DNA of 64,000 nt from a virus (lineage: Duplodnaviria; Caudoviricetes), in IMG/VR virus record IMGVR_UViG_2654587515_000001, positions 15,175 to 79,174 of that record. The stretch is one strand, 5' to 3'. Positions 1,414-56,095 of the stretch are shown piece after piece. Made by a program: the position numbers and the translations under genes. Each line of letters starts with the position of its first letter. The first letter of the stretch is position 1. The notes beneath the pieces are model-generated. The model was not told the DNA's origin, made no database searches, and was given only the letters and a program-made list of their open reading frames with translations.

Positions 1414-3012
1414 ATGGGAACTCCTAGCACAGAACAGGCGTACCGCGATCAGGTCGCTACAATCAACAACAACGCTTCGCAGCTTGCGCGACATATTATC
1501 GATCCGCAGATGGATAATGGTGAGATTATCACTGACAGTGCCGCTCGCAATGAAGCCATCATTCAAAGCCTTGACGGTTCAATCTTTGATAATGCCGGTG
1601 AAATGTCAAAGATGGTTGCAGGCTCTGCCGCCAACGCGGTCCGTCACTACCACTCAATGCATGGTGAAATGCCGTCAGCTGAGCTGATGTCGTCAATGCA
1701 CAACAGTATTGAGAATATGCTGGATCCGAACACTGAAAACCCTCATCTACGCGCGATTCTCGATAGTGCCGGTGACGGTTCAATGAGTGCTTCTGAAGGC
1801 ATCATTCAGCGTAACCGCATGGTTGCTCTGGTTGTACCGGTGCAGCTGATGATGATCACCAACGACATGGTGACGCACATTCCGGCGAACTATAACAAGT
1901 CTGAAATCTTCCGCATCAACCGTGTGGCCGGCTCAACGTTTGGCGACCTAAACGAAGGCGATTTGATTGACGTCGATTTCAACGGTCAGTATGCGTCCAT
2001 GGACCAACGCCACCAAATCGGCAGCGGTGACGGCACAGCCGTTGATTTTAACTTCGATATCGCCGCCAAAGCGAAGGCAATGCCATTTGTGAAAGGCAAG
2101 GTCCGTATTCTGGTTGATCGTATGCCTGTTGGTGGTGATGACGGTAAAGGCGGCATCTTCGGTAAATTCACTGACGCAGACGGTGACACGGTAACATTTA
2201 CCGGTACGGTGAATTATCAAGTTGGTCAGCTTGCGGTGAAGTTCTCCAAAGCACCGAAGACCGGCATCGAGATCCATACCATTGCAGACATCTCCATTGA
2301 GAAAGACCCGTCTCTGATCCCGACCGTTGAGCACGAAATGGTGAGCTACGAGCTGTTCCCGCACGAATCTGCGCTGGTTAGCTCTAACTCTATTCAGTCT
2401 CAGTTCACTGGTAAGCGCGAATACAACATTGATATCGCAGGTATGCAGCTGGCAACCGCTCGTAACCTGATGGCAGCGGACAAAGACCGCAAACGCCTGA
2501 ACGATATCTACTTCTACGCGAAAGGCGAGAAGACATTCGACCTGACGATTCCGTCTGGCCTGTCTTACCGTCAGCACTACGAAATGATCCAAACCACGCT
2601 GTTGGCAATTTCTACCGAGCTGATGAACCGCACCAAGCGTAGCGGTCTGGTGGGTGTTGTTGCTGGCCGTGAAGCGTCTCGCGTTCTGAAATCGCTGGGT
2701 GCGCCGCACATGGTATACGCACCGAACTACCGCCAACTACCACAGCCGCACTATGTGGGTACCGTGTTTGGCTACAAGTTCAAAGAAGACCCGCACATGG
2801 CGGACCCATGGCGCGTGCTGTGTTACGCCAAAGGCCGTGAGCACGGTGATGCTGGTTATGTGGCGGGTGATGCGATTTCAGCGATCAACTACGCACACAG
2901 CATCGGTCGCAACCTGAAGCACGAAAACACGCTCTACGAGCTGGCTTATCGTGATCTCCACCCGCACAACGGGCGCGATTGGTTCATGTGGTTGCGATTC
3001 ACGCCTCAGTAA
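1414..3012 (+). CDS. Major capsid protein (P1 gp23-like)
   Basis: About 530-550 aa, directly before the sheath block. ORF track starts at 1366, but ATG 1414 has an RBS (AAGGAAG) and fits the promoter position. Confidence 0.8.
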   Translation: MGTPSTEQAYRDQVATINNNASQLARHIIDPQMDNGEIITDSAARNEAIIQSLDGSIFDNAGEMSKMVAGSAANAVRHYHSMHGEMPSAELMSSMHNSIENMLDPNTENPHLRAILDSAGDGSMSASEGIIQRNRMVALVVPVQLMMITNDMVTHIPANYNKSEIFRINRVAGSTFGDLNEGDLIDVDFNGQYASMDQRHQIGSGDGTAVDFNFDIAAKAKAMPFVKGKVRILVDRMPVGGDDGKGGIFGKFTDADGDTVTFTGTVNYQVGQLAVKFSKAPKTGIEIHTIADISIEKDPSLIPTVEHEMVSYELFPHESALVSSNSIQSQFTGKREYNIDIAGMQLATARNLMAADKDRKRLNDIYFYAKGEKTFDLTIPSGLSYRQHYEMIQTTLLAISTELMNRTKRSGLVGVVAGREASRVLKSLGAPHMVYAPNYRQLPQPHYVGTVFGYKFKEDPHMADPWRVLCYAKGREHGDAGYVAGDAISAINYAHSIGRNLKHENTLYELAYRDLHPHNGRDWFMWLRFTPQ

Positions 3013-3027
3013 TCGCACTGGTTTCAC

Positions 3028-3053
3028 TGGGTGCCGCTTCATTGCGGCGCCCA
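3028..3053 (+). other. Intercistronic GC-rich hairpin after the capsid gene (mRNA stabiliser or attenuator)
   Basis: TGGGTGCCGC-TTCATT-GCGGCGCCCA with no T-tract. Confidence 0.5.
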
Positions 3054-3081
3054 CGTCACTTAACTAAGTAGGAATTTGTCT

Positions 3082-3585
3082 ATGGCAACCACAAAAACAA
3101 ACACCCGCACTACCCGTAAACCAGCAACCAGCAACAAAACCACTGAGACCACTGACGACAAGTCAACTGGTACAGATGAAACGGTTGTCACTGGCGAAGC
3201 TGGCGCAACAGGTGCAGGTGATGCCGGCGCTGGCGATACGAATACCGGCACTGGCACCGAAGGGGCCGGAGAAGAATGCTCAGAGTCTGGCGATACATCT
3301 ACAGGTACCGACGGTGACAATGCCGGTGCAGAAGGTGGTGAATCAACAGGCGCCACTGATACCGGCGCTGGCGACGTACCAGAGGGTGATGATTCTGCCC
3401 TTGAAGTGCTAATGACCAATAACAGCGTTTCTGGTCACGAAATTTTGCGTGCTGACGGCAGCATTTTAGCTATCAACGGGCACTGCAAAGATTTATCCAT
3501 CACGACAAATAAAGAAGAGCTGATCGCTATTCAGTCCGCTCTTGCTGATAAGCCGTGGGTGGAAATCAAACTTAAAGCGGAGTAA
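3082..3585 (+). CDS. Hypothetical virion protein with a low-complexity T/G/D/E linker
   Basis: RBS AGGAA; basic N-terminus, about 90-aa Gly/Thr/Asp tract, small folded C-terminal domain; lies between capsid and sheath. Confidence 0.7.
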   Translation: MATTKTNTRTTRKPATSNKTTETTDDKSTGTDETVVTGEAGATGAGDAGAGDTNTGTGTEGAGEECSESGDTSTGTDGDNAGAEGGESTGATDTGAGDVPEGDDSALEVLMTNNSVSGHEILRADGSILAINGHCKDLSITTNKEELIAIQSALADKPWVEIKLKAE

Positions 3586-3591
3586 TTCAGC

Positions 3592-5142
3592 ATGTCTGGA
3601 ATGATCAGCCAATTTATTACCGAGGCAGCCGGCATTGCCGTTCTGCCGCCCATTGATAACAACTACACCACAGGTGGCGGTGACGTCGCTGTTGGTGCTT
3701 GTGTTGTTATCGCGTCAAAAGGCCCTGTTGGGAAAATCATCACAGCCACTGCAGATGACTGGGAAGATCTACTGGGCCGTCCTATGCCAATGAACCAAGG
3801 CACGAAAGCCGAAGGTTTACGCCACCTTAAAGACGCACTGGATTCGCTGCAATACTGCCACGTCGTGCGCGTTGTCGCTGATGATGCGAAATACCCATCT
3901 ATCGCGCTACCTGTTGCTGATGGTGCGGCGGTGAAATCGTCACACAGCTACGGCACGACATTGAGCCTGTCTGCCGGTCACTGGCTGTCGGTTTACCCTG
4001 TTGACGGCGATCCATCCACTAAGCGCCGCATGGTGATCAGCGACGTCGATACGGATGCAGAGCGTTTCACCCTGTCTTTCCAAGAGCAAGTCAGCGGCGA
4101 ATGGCAAACCCTGCAAGGTGAAAGCTTTGTGGTGGGCGTGAACGTTGATGATGTCGACGATTCTGGCCTTACTGCCTACCTGCCGAATGTGCTGGAAGAG
4201 CGCTCAGCGCGTTTCCGTGCAGAAATCGCAGCAACGGTCGACTTTGCCGTCGTAAAAGCCTGCGAAGAAGCCTTTGAAGGCGGTACCAATGGCGGCGAGC
4301 CAACGCTGGATAACTGGAAGGATGCGTGGGATCTGCTCAAGACCGACGACATCGACTTTAACCTTTGTTTTGCTGCCGGTAACTATGAGCCGTCCGCGAT
4401 TGCTCACATGGTCACCATCGCTGATGGTCGTCTGGCGCAATTCCGTTTTGACGTACCGCCATGGTTAACGGAAGTGGCTGCAAAACAGTGGTTGGAAGAT
4501 GCCAACCTTGAGTCTTATCAGGCGTCTTGTTTCCACTATCCCTACAAAGCGACCGACGAATGGTACGGCGGTAAGAGTGTCTGGGGCTTGTCTGGTGGTG
4601 CTACTGCAGCGAAAGCTAAGTGTTTTGCCCAGCCAACCGGTCATGCCGCTGTTAAAGGGGCGCACTATACCGCTGCCGGCGAGAAGCGCGGCCTTGTGAA
4701 CCGTCGTGGTATCGAGCCGCTACACCTGACTGGCAAGCTGCAGCCGACAGAATTGGTGAAAGCACGTATTAACCCTGTCGCCAAAGGCAAGGTGATCAAT
4801 GACTGTCTGAATATCTGGCGCAAGAACAACTACCTGCGTTTTGAGCACACAACAGCCATTCTCAATGACCTGTGTCATGAGTTCCTGCAAGCAGCTGCCG
4901 TGGTCCAGTTTGAGCCTGACGGGTTTGTGCTGGAAAACCTGCAGGACCTTGCAGACAAGATCTGTAAGAAGCGCTTTGAAGCCGGTGCGTTCGTTGAGCC
5001 TCGCAATCCGAACAAAGACGGCAAAAACCCTTACCGTATCACGCTGAAGCAAGTCGAGCTGGACTACTGGCACATTGAAGTCGCTTATGCTCAAACCGGC
5101 GTGGCGCGTCGTATCGCAATTCAACCTCGCCTGATGGCGTAA
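3592..5142 (+). CDS. Contractile tail sheath protein (P1 gp22-like)
   Basis: 516 aa; KGPVG motif, GGTNG linker, DFNLCF and sheath-type C-terminus (LRFEH...VARRIAIQ). Confidence 0.9.
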   Translation: MSGMISQFITEAAGIAVLPPIDNNYTTGGGDVAVGACVVIASKGPVGKIITATADDWEDLLGRPMPMNQGTKAEGLRHLKDALDSLQYCHVVRVVADDAKYPSIALPVADGAAVKSSHSYGTTLSLSAGHWLSVYPVDGDPSTKRRMVISDVDTDAERFTLSFQEQVSGEWQTLQGESFVVGVNVDDVDDSGLTAYLPNVLEERSARFRAEIAATVDFAVVKACEEAFEGGTNGGEPTLDNWKDAWDLLKTDDIDFNLCFAAGNYEPSAIAHMVTIADGRLAQFRFDVPPWLTEVAAKQWLEDANLESYQASCFHYPYKATDEWYGGKSVWGLSGGATAAKAKCFAQPTGHAAVKGAHYTAAGEKRGLVNRRGIEPLHLTGKLQPTELVKARINPVAKGKVINDCLNIWRKNNYLRFEHTTAILNDLCHEFLQAAAVVQFEPDGFVLENLQDLADKICKKRFEAGAFVEPRNPNKDGKNPYRITLKQVELDYWHIEVAYAQTGVARRIAIQPRLMA

Positions 5143-6982: not shown

Positions 6983-7536
6983 CCCCCAACGCCCTATTAG
7001 CTCGCGTCAAGGGACAGTTTATAACTCTTTACCATGACGAAGCAGATAAGCTCGAAGCGTTGCTTATTCAAGCGCTCAACGAGTATCAAGATAGGGCGGG
7101 TGTGATCCGGACTGTCACCGTGACACTGGACCAACAAAAAGCCGGCGGTATTGATGTACCGCCGCATTTCATGACCATGGTAACGGCCAATGACGTTGAT
7201 CAGGTCTGGCATGAAGTCACGGTAGAAGAAGACAAACTGAATATTGTGACCACGGAATACAGCGTGGCCCCGTTCAAAGTCCAATATCTGGAAGCGATCA
7301 GTCAATACGATTTAGACAATGATACGCTGCCGGCACACACCACAGGGATGCTGCAAAAGTATCTCAAAGTCCTTATCGACATCCCCAACACAGAGCGTGA
7401 GCAATACTCCCGCAGCGCTGCCGGCTTACCACTGGATGGAATGCCGCAATTGTCAGAGCTGTATGAGCGCAAACGCCAGTTAGAAGAAGAAATGGAAGAG
7501 TCGGGCAATATGCTGATGCCTTCCATGCTGCTTTAG
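6979..7536 (+). CDS. Virion morphogenesis protein (P1 PmgC-like, head-tail adaptor)
   Basis: ATGA overlap; position before the Tub-like gene. Confidence 0.5.
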   Translation: MTPNALLARVKGQFITLYHDEADKLEALLIQALNEYQDRAGVIRTVTVTLDQQKAGGIDVPPHFMTMVTANDVDQVWHEVTVEEDKLNIVTTEYSVAPFKVQYLEAISQYDLDNDTLPAHTTGMLQKYLKVLIDIPNTEREQYSRSAAGLPLDGMPQLSELYERKRQLEEEMEESGNMLMPSMLL

Positions 7537-7546
7537 GAGAGCGGCC

Positions 7547-7906
7547 ATGCGCCACAATGATGTTTCAATCGGTACACCCTTATATTTCTACCAAATCACC
7601 CCAGAAGGGCCGCTGGTGGGCGAATGGCTCACTTGTGAAGTGACCGGCGAGCATGGGCAGGTTTGGCTGGTCAGTTACGAAGACAGAGTGTATGCCGTCG
7701 ACAAGGCGACGTTAGTCAGTGAGCGAACAGCGTTTTACACCCAGAAAGCTCCTGAGAACGAGCCAAAGGGCCGCTATGCACTCTCTGAGTCATTACGCCA
7801 GTACTTTATGGCAAACCGTCACCACAGAATGCCCTATGACCTGATCCGTCAGATGTACGACTTGGTGAACGACCATGTGACAACGGGGGCGCCGGATGGC
7901 CGCTGA
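7547..7906 (+). CDS. Hypothetical protein (119 aa)
   Basis: Strong RBS AGGAGA; fills the gap in the tail operon. Confidence 0.65.
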   Translation: MRHNDVSIGTPLYFYQITPEGPLVGEWLTCEVTGEHGQVWLVSYEDRVYAVDKATLVSERTAFYTQKAPENEPKGRYALSESLRQYFMANRHHRMPYDLIRQMYDLVNDHVTTGAPDGR

Positions 7907-17139: not shown

Positions 17140-17742
17140 GTGAGTTACTTATCTTTCGATTATGCCCAATTCAACGAAAAGGGCCTGAAGAAAGTCATTG
17201 ACGAATTTAAGCGTCAGGATCTTCAGGTCACAAGTGTTGAGGCGGACAACAAAGCCAAACGACAGTCTGGTGTTCAGACGAAAAAAGCCACCCTTCATTT
17301 TGCTGATGGTCAGAAGCTCATGCTTCAAGCGACTGCGCAAGGGGCTATCTTCCAAGTTCGTCTTAATACGCGAGTCATTCCGATCAAGCATGTTGACGAT
17401 CTCAAAAAAGCCGTGGCCGAGATCGCCGGCAAAGTCAGTGCAAACAGTAAGCAGTTTCAGAAAACCCTGAAAAAACGCGCGTCCAGAGCCAGTAGTGCAA
17501 GCAAGGACTCAACCAGCCGCGCCAAAACCTCGCTGAAAGCTCAAATTGCACTCGCTAAATCGGACAATCAAGAGTTGGAAAGCTCTGTTCAGGAAAAGCG
17601 TCAGCAAAAACAGACGCTGGAAGAAGCTCTGCCGGCTAAAGAGCAGAGAAAGTCCGATATCAGTGCGCAAATCACCCAAGAATACTCGGTTTCCGAGCAG
17701 CTGGAAGCCGAACTGAAACAATTAGAGGAGCTGACCTCATGA
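17140..17742 (+). CDS. hdf: Defence-against-restriction protein Hdf
   Basis: FDYAQFNEKGLK...KKATLHFADGQ...FQVRLNTRVIP...NSKQFQKTL matches P1 Hdf. GTG 17140 has a GGAG RBS (ORF track starts at 17125). Confidence 0.85.
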   Translation: MSYLSFDYAQFNEKGLKKVIDEFKRQDLQVTSVEADNKAKRQSGVQTKKATLHFADGQKLMLQATAQGAIFQVRLNTRVIPIKHVDDLKKAVAEIAGKVSANSKQFQKTLKKRASRASSASKDSTSRAKTSLKAQIALAKSDNQELESSVQEKRQQKQTLEEALPAKEQRKSDISAQITQEYSVSEQLEAELKQLEELTS

Positions 17743-19247
17743 ACCCAGTGAACGGATTAAAAGTTTACGCAATGCCAGATCCACTGGCAAAAGGCTTTAC
17801 ACGCTCTCAAATCAAAGAAGCCATGTATCAGTTAACGGCAGATCCGGAGCAAGAGGCATTGATGCTGGAAGCAGAGCCGTTCGCAATCATGGATGCGGCC
17901 TATGTCGAGGGTGAGCGAGTGGAAGCCCACGACGGCTTTATTCTGGATGCGGTCACAACCAGTTATGCGACGTTCCCGCGCACGATGAAGGCCCTTGCTC
18001 GGGCGCTAAATCGCTCTTTGTCCAGCAGCAACATTACCGTAACCGATCATGAGGTTGGAGAACCGAAGAAAAACAACCTCTTTGCAACGGTGGCCGCGCA
18101 ATTCATCCTCAGTGACGGTCAGGCCGTCAGTGTGGTGTTTCATGCCCCAGATGAAGATCCCAAAGTGTTTAAGCCAGATGATGTCGTGATTGCGTTTCGC
18201 TGGCTGCTCAATAAGCGCGACATTACCCAAGTCGTGGCCCCTGAAATGAATAAAGGGAAAATGCGCGAAGTCTCCCTGTCTACGATCGGTAAACGCATTG
18301 GCAATATTGCCGCTGCCAACTCAGAAACCTTTCAGGCCAAGCAAAAAGAAGTGACGGAATCGCGCAATGAGTTAGCCAGCCTGCAGGAATCGTCCAACGC
18401 TTTGCTGGATGAACTCAATACACTCACGACAGAAGTCGCGCAACTGGAAGGCCGAGACAAAGAACTTGAGCACATGGTCACTGTGAAGTCAGACGAGCTG
18501 GCCGAGCGCCAGCGCTACAACGATAGCCTGCGTGAGAAGATTGCCGCTCTGAAAGCAGCGCAACCAGAGCCTGAGCCATCACCCGAGCCATCACAAGGCG
18601 AAGGAGAGCCTCAACCAGAAGAGAATACGGCCTTAGAGCGCTTTAAACTGGTCGAACCTTCATTATTTAAGGATGTCGTGGCATCAATCAGCACCATTGC
18701 AGCTATTGACCGAGGTGAAGAGAAAGGGTTAACTCGCTCACTCTTTGTAAGTTCGATTGTTAACAAGTTAAAAACTCGACATAACAATGGGCAATCCGAA
18801 GTTGTTGATGCTGCACTGGATTTTATCTCTGAAGCGCAAAAGTCTCTCGATAAGCCGATCATTTCCGCTCGAAATGGGGTTTGGTCTTTACATAGCAATG
18901 CCGCTGGCAGTAAGGAAGAGAAGGATGAGAATGCCGCACCGGATGCGCCAGAAACACCGTCAACGCCTGAAGACACGCCGACAGAGACGCCAGACACACC
19001 GGATGAGTCCCAAAAAGGGGAAAATGACGACATGAATGAACAATCTGTAGGTGATAAGCCCCAAGCGGTACTAACATTAGAAAATATCGTCAATGGTGTA
19101 CATGATGATGTTGCTGCAGATGATGTGCTTGAAATGATAGAAGAAGCCAGCGAAGAGTTAGAAAAACTGGGGCTGGTGGAAGAATACGATGCCCTGATCG
19201 GCTCAGCGGTAGAGAAATACGCAGAGCTTGATGAAAAGCAGGAGTAA
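17739..19247 (+). CDS. darA: Defence-against-restriction protein DarA
   Basis: Hdf-like N-terminal domain (AQFILSDGQAVSVVFH...AFRWLLNKRDIT..VAPE), coiled coil, Pro-rich linkers and an acidic C-terminal helix; follows hdf. Confidence 0.85.
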   Translation: MNPVNGLKVYAMPDPLAKGFTRSQIKEAMYQLTADPEQEALMLEAEPFAIMDAAYVEGERVEAHDGFILDAVTTSYATFPRTMKALARALNRSLSSSNITVTDHEVGEPKKNNLFATVAAQFILSDGQAVSVVFHAPDEDPKVFKPDDVVIAFRWLLNKRDITQVVAPEMNKGKMREVSLSTIGKRIGNIAAANSETFQAKQKEVTESRNELASLQESSNALLDELNTLTTEVAQLEGRDKELEHMVTVKSDELAERQRYNDSLREKIAALKAAQPEPEPSPEPSQGEGEPQPEENTALERFKLVEPSLFKDVVASISTIAAIDRGEEKGLTRSLFVSSIVNKLKTRHNNGQSEVVDAALDFISEAQKSLDKPIISARNGVWSLHSNAAGSKEEKDENAAPDAPETPSTPEDTPTETPDTPDESQKGENDDMNEQSVGDKPQAVLTLENIVNGVHDDVAADDVLEMIEEASEELEKLGLVEEYDALIGSAVEKYAELDEKQE

Positions 19248-19252
19248 TAAGC

Positions 19253-19564
19253 ATGTTGTCTGGTGTAGAAAAGCTCAAGCTGGCAAAGGAGATACGCCAG
19301 CTAAGAGCGCAAATTAAAAGCGCATCAATAAAAGGGATTGAGAAGTTGAAAATTGCCAAGCAAATAAAGGCAATTCGCGCTCAAATTGTGGGTGGTGCTC
19401 AAAAGCTCGCTTCTCGGCTTGATGAACTCATAGGGGGTAAGTTTGATCACCTAGAGCCAGTCAAGTTTATCGCTATTGTGCGTGAAATTTCCGAAGAGTC
19501 GGGCGAATTTGAGTCCGTTAAGCAACCAGTAATTAACTATGTCGAAAAAAGACTCCCAGCCTAA
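19253..19564 (+). CDS. ddrA: DdrA-like protein
   Basis: Follows darA; tandem N-terminal helix repeat (SGVEKLKLAKEI / KGIEKLKIAKQI) and GGKFD...FI..V...VKQ C-terminus as in P1 DdrA. Confidence 0.6.
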   Translation: MLSGVEKLKLAKEIRQLRAQIKSASIKGIEKLKIAKQIKAIRAQIVGGAQKLASRLDELIGGKFDHLEPVKFIAIVREISEESGEFESVKQPVINYVEKRLPA

Positions 19565-21353: not shown

Positions 21354-21917
21354 TCACTCGCACCCAAGCACCCTCGACATGCCCTCAACTACGCTCAGCC
21401 GGATACGAGCCAATGAAAGCTCACGTTTAGCCTGCGCCAGTCCTTCCTCAGCCATTTCCTTGGCTGACGATGACACTTTGGCCTCACTGTGTAGCACGGG
21501 GAGGTCTTTCTCGGTGAAAAACTCCAATACATGCGGCTGAAAAAGTTCAACCGGTGGCGTGGAGTAGCCCTGATGCACCGCTCGTTCGTAAATTCGCTCG
21601 AACTTGTCAGAGTTCGTGTGTTTACAGTAGGTCAGAAACCTATCTCGCATGGTCCGATCGGATACGTTAATCATGACGGCAGCATCATGAATGCGAGCGC
21701 CAAGAAAAATAGACAGGATCGCTTTTCTCGTCTCTTCACCGTAGGGGGAAAGCGTTCCTCCCTTCGCATGAAAAGTTGAGGGCGAGCCATTCTGAATCGC
21801 TTCATTCTCTGAAATCGTGACATCCGTTTCCCTGTGTCCTGCAGACTCAATAAAGCCCGTTCCAAAATCCGATTTCTCAATATGAGTTATCACAGTATGA
21901 AAGTAGTCACCTAGCAC
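21354..21917 (-). CDS. SOS-box-controlled putative DNA-binding protein (HTH-like plus coiled coil)
   Basis: GTG start with AAGGAG RBS; HTH-like GARIHDAAVMINVSDRTMRDRF; LexA box 54 bp upstream. Confidence 0.7.
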   Translation of the reverse strand: MLGDYFHTVITHIEKSDFGTGFIESAGHRETDVTISENEAIQNGSPSTFHAKGGTLSPYGEETRKAILSIFLGARIHDAAVMINVSDRTMRDRFLTYCKHTNSDKFERIYERAVHQGYSTPPVELFQPHVLEFFTEKDLPVLHSEAKVSSSAKEMAEEGLAQAKRELSLARIRLSVVEGMSRVLGCE

Positions 21918-21970
21918 TACGTCTTCTCCTTTTTCTTATTATGGAAGTACAACCTTTGCACCAACATAGA

Positions 21971-21990
21971 TACTGTTTAAATATACAGTA
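21971..21990. promoter_or_regulatory. LexA (SOS) box
   Basis: TACTGTTTAAATATACAGTA = CTG-N10-CAG, near consensus, within a 9-bp perfect inverted repeat AGATACTGT/ACAGTATCT. Confidence 0.85.
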
Positions 21991-22082
21991 TCTTACAGCT
22001 TTTTTATATAAATCAAAGACTCAATAAGGGCGAGTATGCATAAGAACCCGTATGTTGTATGTAGACAAAAACGTCCACAAAC

Positions 22083-22835
22083 CTAACGAATACGGAATGA
22101 GTCGGTCTTGGTGATTAGCTTGGTTGATGAGCAAGTAGACAATAAAGTGCGCAGCTCAGACACGCTGTAGCCGGTCTTATCTCGTATGCGTGCCTTCATT
22201 GATCGAACGGTAGAAGGCGTTACGCCCAGTCTTTCTGCGGCCTCCTTGTCAGAGAGGCCCATGCGCTTACAAAAGATAAGGCGCGTTTCCGTCATGCTTA
22301 GGGGGTTTGCGAGATCGGCAAAATCGGGCACCTTGACGTGCCTAGATTCGGTAACGCGAAAGAAATCATTAATCAAAAATGTGGTGCCCATCAAATTTCC
22401 GTTGAGGTCCACTAACGGGTATTTTTGAGTTTCAATGGTATGCAATTTGACACTACTGCCGAAAAAGTAATCGCAATCTGCAAATACCATAGCTTGGCGC
22501 TCTTCCATAATGAGCTTATCTTGGATGGCATATCCTTGAGCGACTTCATCACTGACACACGTCGGCATTTCTTCTAAGCGCTTACCATAAAAAGCGTAGC
22601 CGCAAGGCAGGTCTACCAGCTCGCGGTAATGGCAATTCATCACAAGGTACTCAGAATCTAGCCCTTTGATCCCCGCCGGCCCAGGATATCGCATCAACTC
22701 AGCCACAAGACAATCACAGAGCACGAACTGGCCCGAGTGGATGCCGTGGTGAATCGACGTATCCTTTCGGGGATAGCATCGTCGACACAGGTGTTTGTTC
22801 TTCTCTAAGCATTCATTATAAGTATTTGCGGCCAT
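22083..22835 (-). CDS. VqmA-like PAS domain plus LuxR-type HTH transcription factor
   Basis: PAS motifs PG..G.K.L.S.Y...N..Y.EL...G....EMP...QD...K.P..D.NGN..GT.F align by eye with V. cholerae VqmA; C-terminal HTH GLSDKEAAERLGVTPSTVRSMKARIRDK. Confidence 0.85.
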   Translation of the reverse strand: MAANTYNECLEKNKHLCRRCYPRKDTSIHHGIHSGQFVLCDCLVAELMRYPGPAGIKGLDSEYLVMNCHYRELVDLPCGYAFYGKRLEEMPTCVSDEVAQGYAIQDKLIMEERQAMVFADCDYFFGSSVKLHTIETQKYPLVDLNGNLMGTTFLINDFFRVTESRHVKVPDFADLANPLSMTETRLIFCKRMGLSDKEAAERLGVTPSTVRSMKARIRDKTGYSVSELRTLLSTCSSTKLITKTDSFRIR

Positions 22836-22935
22836 TCTACCCTCTAAAGTTTTACAAGACCGCCAACTGCAAAGCGTAATTTATATGTTAATTATTATAT
22901 TAATTTATAGTGTAGGCCAATTTCGGACAGTTTTG

Positions 22936-22969
22936 TGTTGATGCCCGTATTTATGTGCCTTGTTACCCT
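22936..22969 (+). promoter_or_regulatory. Putative late promoter (darB)
   Basis: TGTTGATGC-N19-TACCCT. Confidence 0.7.
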
Positions 22970-23031
22970 CCTGATGGACATTATTGTTTGCCCATCAAAA
23001 GGAGGATGGCGAACTTCCCGCCATAAACTGA

Positions 23032-26000
23032 ATGTACAAATTCTTAATAACAACCCCTTTTAAATCAGAAGTTTCCATTCTGATTAACTCCGATTGGGAC
23101 CAAAAATCCCCCGTCGAAATGGAAGGCTCAGACGATGACCAATTGATGATCAAAAATTTCATCCGTTTTCATGGTATGACCCCCGATGGACGTATTGCCC
23201 AGCTCCCTGAAATGACGCCAATGAGTGCTCATTACTCATTCACCACCAAAGCGGCGACAGAGCAAGGCTTCACCATTAAGTTTATTCAAGGTGAGCAAAA
23301 ACCATACCCGCACCGTGATGTGGTGTTTGATAGCGCGGAAGATGACGAGCCATCGTTCACCACCAAACCGCAATCATTCAAACTTCAGGACCGATACCAA
23401 TTCCAAGGTTTGCCGATTTCTATCGAAAACAAAGCAGGCACCAAGCGTGCCGGCGTGGACCCAGATGGTAGCGAATGGTCCGTCGCAATGCATTATGACT
23501 ACGGATACATAAGATCGACCAAAGGCACCGACCAAGAGGGTATTGATTGTTATATCGGGCCAAACCGTAAAGCCGATCACGTCTACATCGTCAAACAACA
23601 CGCGATCGAAAAAGTGAAGCAGTGGCCATCGAAATACTGCCCACAGTGTAAAGAGCACGCTCAAGACTGCGCCTGCCCTGAATTCTTTGATGAAGACAAA
23701 GTAATGCTGGGCTTTGATAACAAAGAGCAGGCGAAAGCGGCTTACCTCAAGCAGTACGATTCCGATCTGTTCTTGGGGCCGATCTCTACGATGCGTATTG
23801 AAGACTTCAAGGAAGCGATCGCTGCGGCGGCTGGGGATGAGTTGGACTTGCCATTGCAGTTCGTGCATGACCATGCCGTTTTAGATAGCGCCACAGATGA
23901 GCAAATCCAAGCCCTGCAAAGCGCAAAAGATATCAATGAGTTAGAAGTTATTTTTAACCAGATATTCCAAGCGGCCAGTCATGATGGCGATCGTGAGTTT
24001 GGCTTGAAGGCCAGCGGCGTCAAAACGCGAGAAACGATCAACAGCAAAGTAAAAGCGATCGTTGATCGAATAAAAGCGGCGAATTGGGACACAAGCAGCC
24101 TGACAGCAGAAGATTACGATCTGCTCGTGCAATATTCTGGCCGTGGCGGCTTGAGTGAAAACAGCCAGTATGAGTACTACACACCGACGTACATTGCCGA
24201 GGGATGCTGGGACTTGCTGGGGGCCAATGGGTTTGATAACGGTAACGTCTTAGAGCCGTCTGCCGGTGCCGGTGTATTTAATGCCACCAAACATCAAGGC
24301 GTGAAGATGACCGCAACGGAAATCGATCCGATCAGTTCTGCCGTCAACAAGATACTTCACCCAGAAGACAACGTATTTAACCAGTCATTTGAGAAAATGG
24401 CCGTTGAGTCACCAGATAACCACTTTGACTCGGTGATTGGTAATATCCCATTCGGCAGTGCCCGAGGCGCTTCTGCGCACGACGACCCCGATCATAAGAG
24501 TGAAAAGCTCATCGAGCGCTACTTCATCAACCGTCTGATCGACAAAGTGAAGCCAAGCGGCCTGTTAGTGCTGGTGGTACCGGTCAATATTGTACGTGAA
24601 CGTGGCAAAGTGTGGCAGAAATGGCGCGCGAAAATCAGCAAGAAAGCGGAATTCCTTGGTGCGCACAAGCTGCCAAGCAAGACGTTTGGCAAGCAAGGTA
24701 CGGGTGTTGTTACCGACATCATTGTGCTGCGCAAGCACTCTAAATCAGCCGCTGAGAAAATTGCTCAACTTCCAATGGAGCAGCTGCAATCGTCCAACGT
24801 GCTTTGGGATACCTTTATTGAAGGCAAATGGTGGGAGCGCGACGGCAAGCCGTTTATTCACGGTAAGTTTGTCCCTAAAGACGCCAGCAAAGTCCGTGAT
24901 GATGACAAAGTGATCCGTGATGCCAGCGTGACCGATGCAGCGCTCAAGCGCAAACTGGCGGCGAAATTCCACTCCCGTATCGACTGGGAAGCGCTCGATA
25001 CCGCCGAGCCGGTGATTAAGAACTATGTCGAAGGCGACCGTCGAATGATTGATGAGCGTATGCACGAGTTCACACGCGGCAACTGGGAACCGGTTGACAC
25101 CCTGCATGGGACCACAACAGCCATTGATGAGAAAAAGTATGGCGTTGCCTCTCTCGAAGCGCTGAAAGGGCTGCTTGAGAGTAATCACGGCCTGATGTCA
25201 CTGTCGGTTAAACAGGCGTTTGCTGCGATGAAGGCATGGGGCCATTTATTTAGCAAACCGCAGAAGCAAGCCATTGAGTTTGCCATGACGCAACCCAGTG
25301 ATGAGTATCGAGAGCAAATCTTCCGAGGTTCGCTGATTGGTGCTGATTTGGCGCGTTTCCAAAATGACACCAACCAAGGCAACTGGGACGCAACCGAGCA
25401 AATGCGACTGCAGGAGTTGGTGGCCAATGAGATCAACAAATACGGCCATCCAAAACAAAACAAGGGGCTTATCCTCGCCGGTGAAAGCTCGCGCTATTTT
25501 GGCGTGTTCTCAAACGCGATGGATGAAAACGGTGAATACTCCACCTTGCTAACCGGTGATGTCAGCACGAAAGGACTGTCATTTGACGACACCAATCCTC
25601 ACGCTATCGTTGAGCACCTATACCTGCGTGAAGGCATGATGCATATTACGTTGGAAGATGTGCAGCAGCTGTACAAAGGCAAGACGCCTATCCGCTCTTT
25701 GTCGGATCTGGCTGATGACAAAAACCTTGCTGTCCACCCTGACGGCCTGCTTATGCCAATGAGCCGTTTTTGCTCTGGGGATGTGTATCAGAAAGTGCTC
25801 ACCCTTAGCCATGCACTCAATGTTGAAACCGATCCGAAACTCAAAGCGAAGTACCAACAACAGCTGGAAGAAATCGAACAGCGTCGCCACAAAACCGCGC
25901 CAGAAAACATTGCGTTCTCGATGCGCCACAAATGGATTGATCGCAAATACGTGCTGGAATTTATGCACGAAAAAGGCTACTCAAACCTTGATTACCTTGT

Positions 26001-30621: not shown

Positions 30622-30660
30622 ATTTCTCTAATACCTCCCTTAACACCATCAACAAATCTG

Positions 30661-30694
30661 TGTTGATGCACCCCTGATCGCCCCTCGTTACTCT
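30661..30694 (+). promoter_or_regulatory. Putative late promoter (portal-protease)
   Basis: TGTTGATGC-N19-TACTCT. Confidence 0.7.
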
Positions 30695-30723
30695 CTCGAT
30701 GTTAATTAACAGGCGAGAGAATC

Positions 30724-38005: not shown

Positions 38006-38047
38006 AGCGTAATTAAAAACGTAATTATTAGCGTAATTTAATACGCT
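38006..38047. promoter_or_regulatory. Operator-like repeat array in a divergent promoter region
   Basis: A(G/A)CGTAATT at 38006, 38018 and 38030 (12-bp period) plus an inverted half-site, AGCGTA-ATTTAA-TACGCT. Confidence 0.55.
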
Positions 38048-55929: not shown

Positions 55930-56095
55930 TGCCTGTATTTCACTGAAAAGCCCGATAAAAAAGCGAGACTGGCGCGTAATCACTGGTTTAGTGCTGCTTT
56001 GCGTAATCCCTTGTGTTACGTGGGCTTGTCGCGCCTCAGTGAATCTATTGCATAGGAGGATTCACGTTCTAGGCCGGCGCAGCTCAATAAAAACG

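Follow-up and report, generated by a model that had tools for sequence, protein, structure and literature searches.

A divergent VqmA relative encoded by Vibrio phage-plasmids, a portable cassette that may add a sensory input to prophage induction

Which signal does a predicted PAS-LuxR regulator read from within the dar region of a Vibrio plasmid-prophage, and which gene does it control? Here, we address this question for one stretch of viral DNA of 64,000 nucleotides, referred to below as the window, and for the relatives of the regulator in other phages. The window comprises most of a P1-like Vibrio plasmid-prophage. Over 14 kb it shares 97.9% identity with plasmid p0908; two V. campbellii plasmids are 96% and 80% identical to it, and V. 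cholerae pE7G and V. vulnificus p48/10 approximately 77%. Another member of this P1-like group, pVv01, is a mitomycin-C-inducible myovirus (PMC4132613). The features discussed are collected in table 1.

Table 1. Coordinates of the regulator gene, its domains and the candidate control elements on either side of it (positions in the window).
Feature	Position	Strand	Basis
PAS + LuxR-type HTH regulator gene, divergent VqmA homologue, 250 aa	22083..22835	-	ORF, Pfam, phmmer, hhalign, Foldseek, VIA-align
N-terminal extension, codons 1-47	22695..22835	-	family alignment
PAS ligand-binding domain, codons 48-157	22365..22694	-	Pfam PAS_4; model pLDDT ~90 over residues 40-155; PAS folds Z 10-12
LuxR/GerE-type helix-turn-helix, codons 176-232	22140..22310	-	Pfam, phmmer, hhalign
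Candidate PAS-gene promoter, TTGGCC then TATAAT or AATAAT	22891..22920	-	sequence; RNA contig ends 22880
AGCGTAATT 9-mer in PAS-gene leader, candidate repressor operator	22873..22881	+	elsewhere only in early-operon control region
Late-type bipartite promoter motif upstream of darB	22933..22970	+	also upstream of operons at 1366 and 30724
20-bp dyad TGTGGAC-N6-GTCTACA, candidate PAS-HTH operator	22060..22079	-	3 nt after stop codon
-10-like hexamer CATACT	22033..22038	-	21 nt after dyad; fixed spacing across contexts; promoter inferred
Sigma-70-like promoter TTGATT-18-GATACT	21987..22016	-	read from sequence; conserved block in relatives
LexA (SOS) box, CTGT-N8-ACAG core, TA flanks	21971..21990		predicted from sequence
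187-aa gene, HTH-like, candidate induction trigger	21354..21917	-	GTG start at 21917, AAGGAG SD; phrog_25672

An earlier note on this DNA, made from the letters alone, had proposed a VqmA-like PAS-LuxR receptor gene inserted between the dar operon and darB and divergent from darB. Both the two-domain 250-aa ORF and its placement are confirmed, the former by phmmer, hhalign and Foldseek and the latter by the ORF map, Pfam and PHROG. Upstream of the gene lie DarA (17739-19247; Pfam DarA_N, 3.7e-29), a DdrA-like gene (19253-19564) and the gene of a 589-aa protein, while a 2349-aa DarB-like ORF, labelled SNF2-related in the annotation of relatives, begins at 23032 and diverges from the regulator gene. 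The ATG start is preceded by a GAGGG Shine-Dalgarno (SD) sequence, and both are kept in six relatives. Single-sequence domain searches are faint: Pfam PAS_4 scores 21.8 bits at residues 51-157, below its cut-off of 23.1, and several HTH families match residues 179-220, GerE (13.8) again sub-threshold. PADLOC gave nothing meaningful for this protein or for the 187-aa protein encoded next to it.

Relationship to VqmA is much clearer in more sensitive comparisons. Against all PDB sequences, phmmer returns four significant matches, every one of them VqmA and every alignment running across PAS and HTH: 7dwm, the VqmA of phage VP882, at 8.8e-6, and the V. cholerae VqmA entries 6ugl, 6kju and 6ide at ~8e-5. 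A profile of nine family members aligned by hhalign with a VqmA-clade alignment gives 99.5% probability (E 3.4e-22, 182 columns, both domains). An AlphaFold model from the nine-sequence family alignment reached a pLDDT of only 46.5 and was replaced by one from a 63-sequence alignment, which is of moderate quality overall (pLDDT 76) and reaches ~90 across the PAS core. VqmA chains occupy Foldseek ranks 1-8 for this model (E 1e-12 to 4e-10), and VIA-align gives them Z scores of 15.5-17.5 (best 7DWM, 17.5) against at most 12.3 for PAS-only chains. As phmmer, hhalign, the model, Foldseek and VIA-align agree, homology to VqmA and the shared fold are solid. The by-eye alignment in the earlier note is the one that HMMER produces; the model is a PAS fold headed by VqmA chains in Foldseek and VIA-align, and the best matches in phmmer and Foldseek are VqmA rather than unrelated PAS-HTH families.

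The breadth of the family to which VqmA belongs sets a limit on what these matches mean. A profile search of 1.8 billion representatives found four proteins below 1e-10, followed by a drop to a tier at 1e-9 to 1e-4 that consists of PAS-HTH proteins of 230-250 aa aligned over their full length. This tier spans Pantoea, Serratia, Enterobacter, Photorhabdus, Hamiltonella, Fukatsuia, Arsenophonus and a Citrobacter plasmid, and includes one Vibrio regulator close to VP882 VqmA; comparable matches lie on Yersinia ruckeri plasmids. Together with the phage family these proteins belong to a superfamily of PAS4-LuxR solos, of which VqmA is the sole solved member, so that a PDB match to VqmA is expected for any of them. 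In a tree, the phage family separates as a clade whose branch measures 2.05 substitutions per site, and its members are 22-25% identical to VqmA; the clade falls on the VqmA side of a split with 99% support, a placement made unsure by long-branch effects.

The ligand pocket bears on whether the protein responds to DPO, as the earlier note had suggested from conserved residues. HMMER reproduces the proposed mapping, in which Tyr36, Gln70, Asp85 and Lys101 are kept while Phe67 becomes Tyr and Phe99 becomes Thr; in full, K23 corresponds to K57, Y36 to Y70, F67 to Y102, Q70 to Q105, D71 to D106, D85 to D120, F99 to T136 and K101 to K138. Most of this conservation is uninformative, since K23, D71, K101, F116 and an aromatic residue at position 67 are near-universal among PAS4-LuxR solos (including those of Photorhabdus, Pantoea, Serratia and Hamiltonella) and hence do not point to DPO. 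Specific sharing is limited to Q70 and D85, which the phage family has in common with the closest VqmA-type rows, those of VP882 VqmA and of a Vibrio regulator. Conversely, the F99 position is an invariant Thr and the H87 position an invariant Asp in the phage family, D122 in the present protein, and both solved DPO receptors differ from it at these positions. V. cholerae VqmA contacts DPO mainly through F67, F99 and K101, and its F99A substitution lowers DPO affinity approximately 10-fold and abolishes Ala-AA binding (bioRxiv 10.1101/2019.12.19.881847); this triad is not retained as such in the phage protein (Y102, T136, K138). The DNA-binding surface differs as well. Four changes in the recognition helix relative to VqmA (K185 to S, E188 to R, Y190 to M and E191 to K in the phmmer alignment) fit an operator other than that of VqmA, and a search of the 64 kb for a PvqmR- or Pqtip-type palindrome, allowing up to three mismatches, found none.

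A true receptor for DPO (or Ala-AA), equivalent to VP882 VqmA and reporting host quorum sensing, is therefore not the favoured reading, and we consider it unlikely. VqmA is the best match in sequence and fold, the phage clade sits on the VqmA side of the supported split, D71 and K101 are kept alongside the more specific Q70 and D85, the Tyr at position 67 is conservative, and the known hosts are all Vibrio, where VqmA and DPO signalling operate. Against this stand the invariant changes at F99 and H87, given the harm done by F99A in VqmA, as well as the low identity and long branch, an additional Cys-rich domain and the lack of a PvqmR or Pqtip operator in the window. Taking together the superfamily-wide nature of most pocket residues, the F99, H87 and helix changes, the missing VqmA-type operator and the long branch, we file the protein, on sequence grounds, as a divergent VqmA relative that is probably not a VqmA orthologue. 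What stands of the earlier identification is a phage-borne, two-domain homologue with full-length profile similarity and VqmA as best fold match; specificity for DPO is not supported, and orthology is doubtful.

The additional domain is a 47-aa extension with conserved C9, C17-x2-C20, H29 and C40-x-C42, which VqmA lacks. The long form is favoured over a start at M48, adopted in some annotations, because the coding sequence of the extension and its SD are conserved. The pattern CxxC...CxC persists in a 38%-identical distant branch, represented by the L009 member, and plausibly marks a Cys4 metal or redox site. The protein might accordingly be imagined as a redox or metal sensor that acts through this Cys/His-rich segment, with the PAS domain serving mainly in dimerization. 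Conservation of the Cys and His positions down to the distant branch, together with their absence from VqmA, speaks for such a role; no Pfam family matches the extension, its residues 1-30 are modelled at low confidence (pLDDT 52-69), and the PAS core retains the pocket Lys and Asp of the superfamily, all of which count against it, and we regard it as improbable.

The gene is not restricted to one type of phage. All family members found reside in temperate Vibrio phage elements or marine metagenomes, and the P1-like and P2-tail/IncFII carriers come from V. parahaemolyticus, V. cholerae, V. vulnificus, V. campbellii, V. anguillarum and V. fluvialis. The first of four contexts is that of the window, between the dar operon and darB on P1-like plasmids and contigs of ~74-97 kb. 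The second is provided by phage-plasmids of 42 kb, from V. cyclitrophicus, V. parahaemolyticus and V. fluvialis, that combine P2-type tails with an IncFII RepA; there the gene lies between tail gene D and the convergent gene of a 109-aa Xre repressor, beyond which follow a LexA box and a 76-aa ORF. In the third, a P1-like backbone (L013) carries the gene at another locus, between a methyltransferase operon and an early operon encoding a 94-aa protein, a 138-aa protein, RdgC and TrfA. The fourth, that of the distant branch (L008 and L009), is another P2-type phage, in which a terminator follows the gene and an 81-aa ORF is divergent from it. Since the gene is found in four phage contexts, it can be described as a mobile cassette.

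The 81-aa ORF of the fourth context resembles Qtip of VP882 (BLASTP 6e-5, matching N-terminal register, shuffle p <= 2e-4), so that the predicted gene arrangement in the distant branch is exactly that of VqmA(Phage)-Qtip. Searching the window by tblastn with Qtip, the Qtip-like 81-aa ORF, the 76-aa ORF and the Xre repressor of the 42-kb phages gave no match. Between the Qtip-like ORF and the regulator gene of L009 (5690-5730), a long palindrome around ACTGTTAACAGT with flanks TCACTAAATT and AATTTAGTGA is a candidate operator, unlike the dyad of the main family described below. In the 42-kb phage-plasmids, the 76-aa ORF is divergent from the Xre repressor, which has no peptidase domain, and is unlike Qtip; in Vibrio phage 10N.237.312.C11_PE002A, a consensus LexA box (7365-7384) stands ahead of it (7409-7639). 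By its layout this looks like a LexA-controlled antirepressor arrangement. Other relatives carry damaged copies: an 82-kb element (IMGVR_UViG_2667527945_000002) has a premature stop in the PAS-HTH gene (3001-3747 of the L018 sequence), and in V. vulnificus p48/10 the 187-aa gene is annotated as two pieces (2576-3062 of the L005 sequence), which indicates that the module decays in some lineages.

What travels with the gene is a short element immediately past its stop codon. In the first three contexts a dyad, TGTRGAC-N6-RKCTACA, starts 2-11 nt beyond the stop; it is invariant in the P1-like relatives, and the remainder of the window contains only one match with a single mismatch, inside a gene. 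At a fixed distance follows a -10-like hexamer, CATACT at the P1-like dar locus (spacer 21 nt) and CATAAT in the other two contexts (spacer 22 nt), while the spacer itself has diverged between contexts except for its first five bases. Such a pattern, in which the dyad, the hexamer and their distance are kept while the spacer sequence varies freely, is typical of an activator site followed by a -10 element. If the hexamer is set at -12 to -7, the centre of the dyad falls at approximately -43.5 or -44.5 (-43.5 in the window). Lux-box-type class II promoters have the same geometry, with a dyad of ~20 bp near -42.5 upstream of the -10 element and no good -35. The dyad and hexamer would thus constitute a LuxR-type activator promoter directed away from the regulator gene, and they are the most likely cis target of the PAS-HTH protein. 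In the window the hexamer matches the -10 consensus at only 4/6 positions. The dyad could alternatively be left over from the end of the cassette, or form a weak RNA hairpin; a terminator is ruled out by the weak stem and missing U-tract. The PAS-HTH gene is without a terminator, and read-through could thus give co-expression of what follows without a second promoter. The sequence downstream of the cassette differs with context: in the window it is a LexA-box gene of 187 aa, in L013 the early RdgC/TrfA operon, and in the 42-kb phage-plasmids the Xre repressor gene, which would be read on its antisense strand. A possible 24-aa ORF past the outward promoter of the 42-kb phages was discarded, as its frame is not conserved.

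In the window, the 187-aa gene has a predicted promoter of its own. A sigma-70-like promoter precedes it with its -10 element inside a predicted LexA box with an AT-rich centre, which is the only CTGT-N8-ACAG in the 64 kb and is kept in 6/6 relatives. Homologues of the 187-aa protein occur on large (67-84 kb) Vibrio contigs and, wherever context could be read, on P1-like Vibrio phage-plasmids, always beside the PAS gene. The protein has no match in the PDB, Pfam or phage collections and no similarity to the Qtip-like ORF; weak HTH_23-type leads come from the ESM Atlas. It is a candidate trigger of lysis. Four studies whose libraries are RNA or possibly RNA (metatranscriptomes of seawater, fish gut and estuary, plus one organism run) contain short contigs that partly cover 21538-21970 and 22409-22880; gaps in this cover carry no meaning. 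As fragments from which transcript starts are not readable, the contigs give a weak hint of expression of the 187-aa and PAS genes; two of them stop close to the LexA-box promoter, at 21959 and 21970, and one extends to 22880, a weak hint of the long form of the regulator or of its candidate promoter.

The opposite flank contains the control regions of the regulator itself and of darB. The 9-mer AGCGTAATT occurs once in the PAS leader; its only other occurrences, three copies in tandem spaced 12 bp apart, fall in the early-operon control region. There, in the divergent region 38006-38046, three ARCGTAATT repeats at exact 12-bp spacing are followed by an inverted copy and are candidate operators of the master repressor of the phage. 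A C1-like master repressor was not found in PHROG scans of 20 early-region ORFs or in the annotation of the remaining 38 kb of a relative. The copy in the PAS leader means that the regulator may be repressed in lysogens, which may move its role to infection or to the period after the onset of induction. Upstream of darB, a bipartite motif (GTGTTGATGC, ~16 nt, then (T/C)GTTAnC(C/T)TC) is found at 22935-22970, as it is at 1316-1355 and 30660-30700, with a partial copy at 56095. The operons behind it (tail genes, darB and portal) are all rightward, and the motif is probably the late promoter of this phage group, read by a late activator or sigma-like factor; a darB late promoter, as envisaged in the earlier note, fits with its occurrence ahead of two other rightward operons. 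In the darB leader (22967-23031), CCTCC...GGAGG pairing could sequester the SD, and a hairpin, ATGGCG-N7-CGCCAT, separates the strong SD at ~23000 from the first ATG at 23032. In relatives the darB start is annotated 110-170 nt further downstream.

Our best reading, which we hold to be somewhat more probable than its negation, is that the cassette gives the induction trigger a second input, driven by a sensor and independent of SOS. It starts from the homology, fold, conserved extension, cassette mobility, dyad and -10 geometry and LexA box documented above, and supposes a ligand, binding at the dyad, activation and a lysis-triggering role of the 187-aa protein. A PAS4-LuxR-solo activator, carried as a portable cassette by temperate Vibrio phage-plasmids, would sense a small molecule (or redox state or a metal), and its dimer would bind the 20-bp dyad just past its own stop codon and activate the outward promoter (dyad centre ~-43.5, -10 CATACT). 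In the window this promoter would read through the LexA-controlled promoter into the 187-aa HTH gene. Cleavage of LexA would de-repress the proximal promoter, a route that fits the mitomycin induction of pVv01, whereas the active PAS-HTH protein would drive the distal promoter and express the 187-aa gene independently of SOS. With an outward promoter in addition to a LexA promoter, the 187-aa gene would have two inputs: DNA damage and the sensor signal. In the 42-kb phage-plasmids the cassette would transcribe the Xre repressor gene in antisense, and in L013 it would drive the early replication operon; each of these outcomes plausibly favours lytic development. By analogy, the scheme would parallel the VqmA(Phage)-Qtip route that VP882 has beside SOS. 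A bolder version can be offered tentatively, with more doubt than belief: that this is an undescribed family of sensor cassettes, each a Cys4-headed VqmA-related receptor with its own operator and outward promoter, that hop between unrelated Vibrio phage-plasmids and put a downstream switch gene under a non-DPO signal.

An accessory (moron-type) regulator of host genes or of the anti-restriction dar genes, outside the lysis-lysogeny switch and with the dyad as a cassette-end relic, would suit the position between dar genes in the window and the plasmid-borne PAS4-LuxR solos of other genera, which are not known as components of phage switches, but has little to commend it when other contexts adjoin immunity or early-replication genes rather than dar, the distant branch is paired with a Qtip-like ORF, and the dyad and -10 element are kept while the spacer between them has diverged.

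Phage eavesdropping on host signals is so far known from a few LuxR- or Xre-type modules and, chiefly, from linear plasmid phages of the VP882 kind. Another VqmA-type family, far more divergent, would widen the phenomenon and supply a new orphan receptor; a regulator with its own outward promoter would show that sensory input is transferable between phages without a dedicated effector gene, and its tandem arrangement with a LexA box would be a compact system in which to study the integration of two induction signals at one trigger gene. In the literature, phage VqmA was found described only for VP882-like linear plasmid phages (PMC12802170), and the papers on p0908 and pVv01 (PMC4132613) do not mention the PAS-HTH gene; the family appears undescribed in the literature searched. 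Phage-encoded receptors that control induction are already known. New here are the occurrence of the cassette in four phage contexts, the dyad and candidate outward promoter, the direction of that promoter into a LexA-box 187-aa gene, and the Qtip-like ORF in the distant branch. The cis-regulatory model for the present variant is testable.

Comparison with known systems highlights both similarities and differences. The nearest is VqmA(Phage)-Qtip of VP882 (7DWM), likewise a PAS and LuxR-type HTH regulator of a phage-plasmid and the best structural match (Z 17.5), with a presumed SOS-independent input to induction and, in the distant branch, a divergent Qtip-like ORF. The two differ in sequence (22-24% identity) and in the 47-aa Cys-rich extension and the Thr and Asp at F99 and H87 of the present family; the window has no Qtip gene, and its putative operator lies downstream of the regulator and is unrelated to Pqtip. 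VP882 is moreover a telN/repA linear plasmid phage, whereas the present hosts are circular P1-like and IncFII-RepA phage-plasmids. V. cholerae VqmA-VqmR (6UGL, 6IDE and 6KJU) shares the domain architecture and K101, D71, D85, Q70 and Y36, but is chromosomal and activates an sRNA through a G6-N4-C6 palindrome that has no counterpart in the window, and its redox cysteines C48 and C63 are not kept in the phage protein. The PAS4-LuxR solos of Photorhabdus, Pantoea, Serratia, Yersinia ruckeri plasmids and insect symbionts have full-length profile matches and the same Lys/Asp/aromatic core; unlike the phage family they are bacterial or plasmid genes without the N-terminal extension, and mostly carry H70 and E85 where the phage family has Q and D. 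LexA-repressed antirepressors such as Tum of coliphage 186 (cited in PMC10432266) resemble the 187-aa gene in that a small phage gene has a consensus LexA box across its promoter and the element shows no evident self-cleaving repressor, but the 187-aa product is dissimilar to known antirepressors and an apparent second, activator-type promoter lies upstream. The TF-smORF modules (Silpe et al., Nature 2023, PMC10432266) are also built on a portable transcription factor with SOS-independent induction at variable phage-plasmid loci, and in the literature searched were found only in linear plasmid-like phages, where they lie between repA and telN (PMC10432266). Their effector is a counter-oriented small ORF, whereas the present module, in three of its contexts, appears to consist of a regulator and an outward promoter that captures whichever gene lies downstream.
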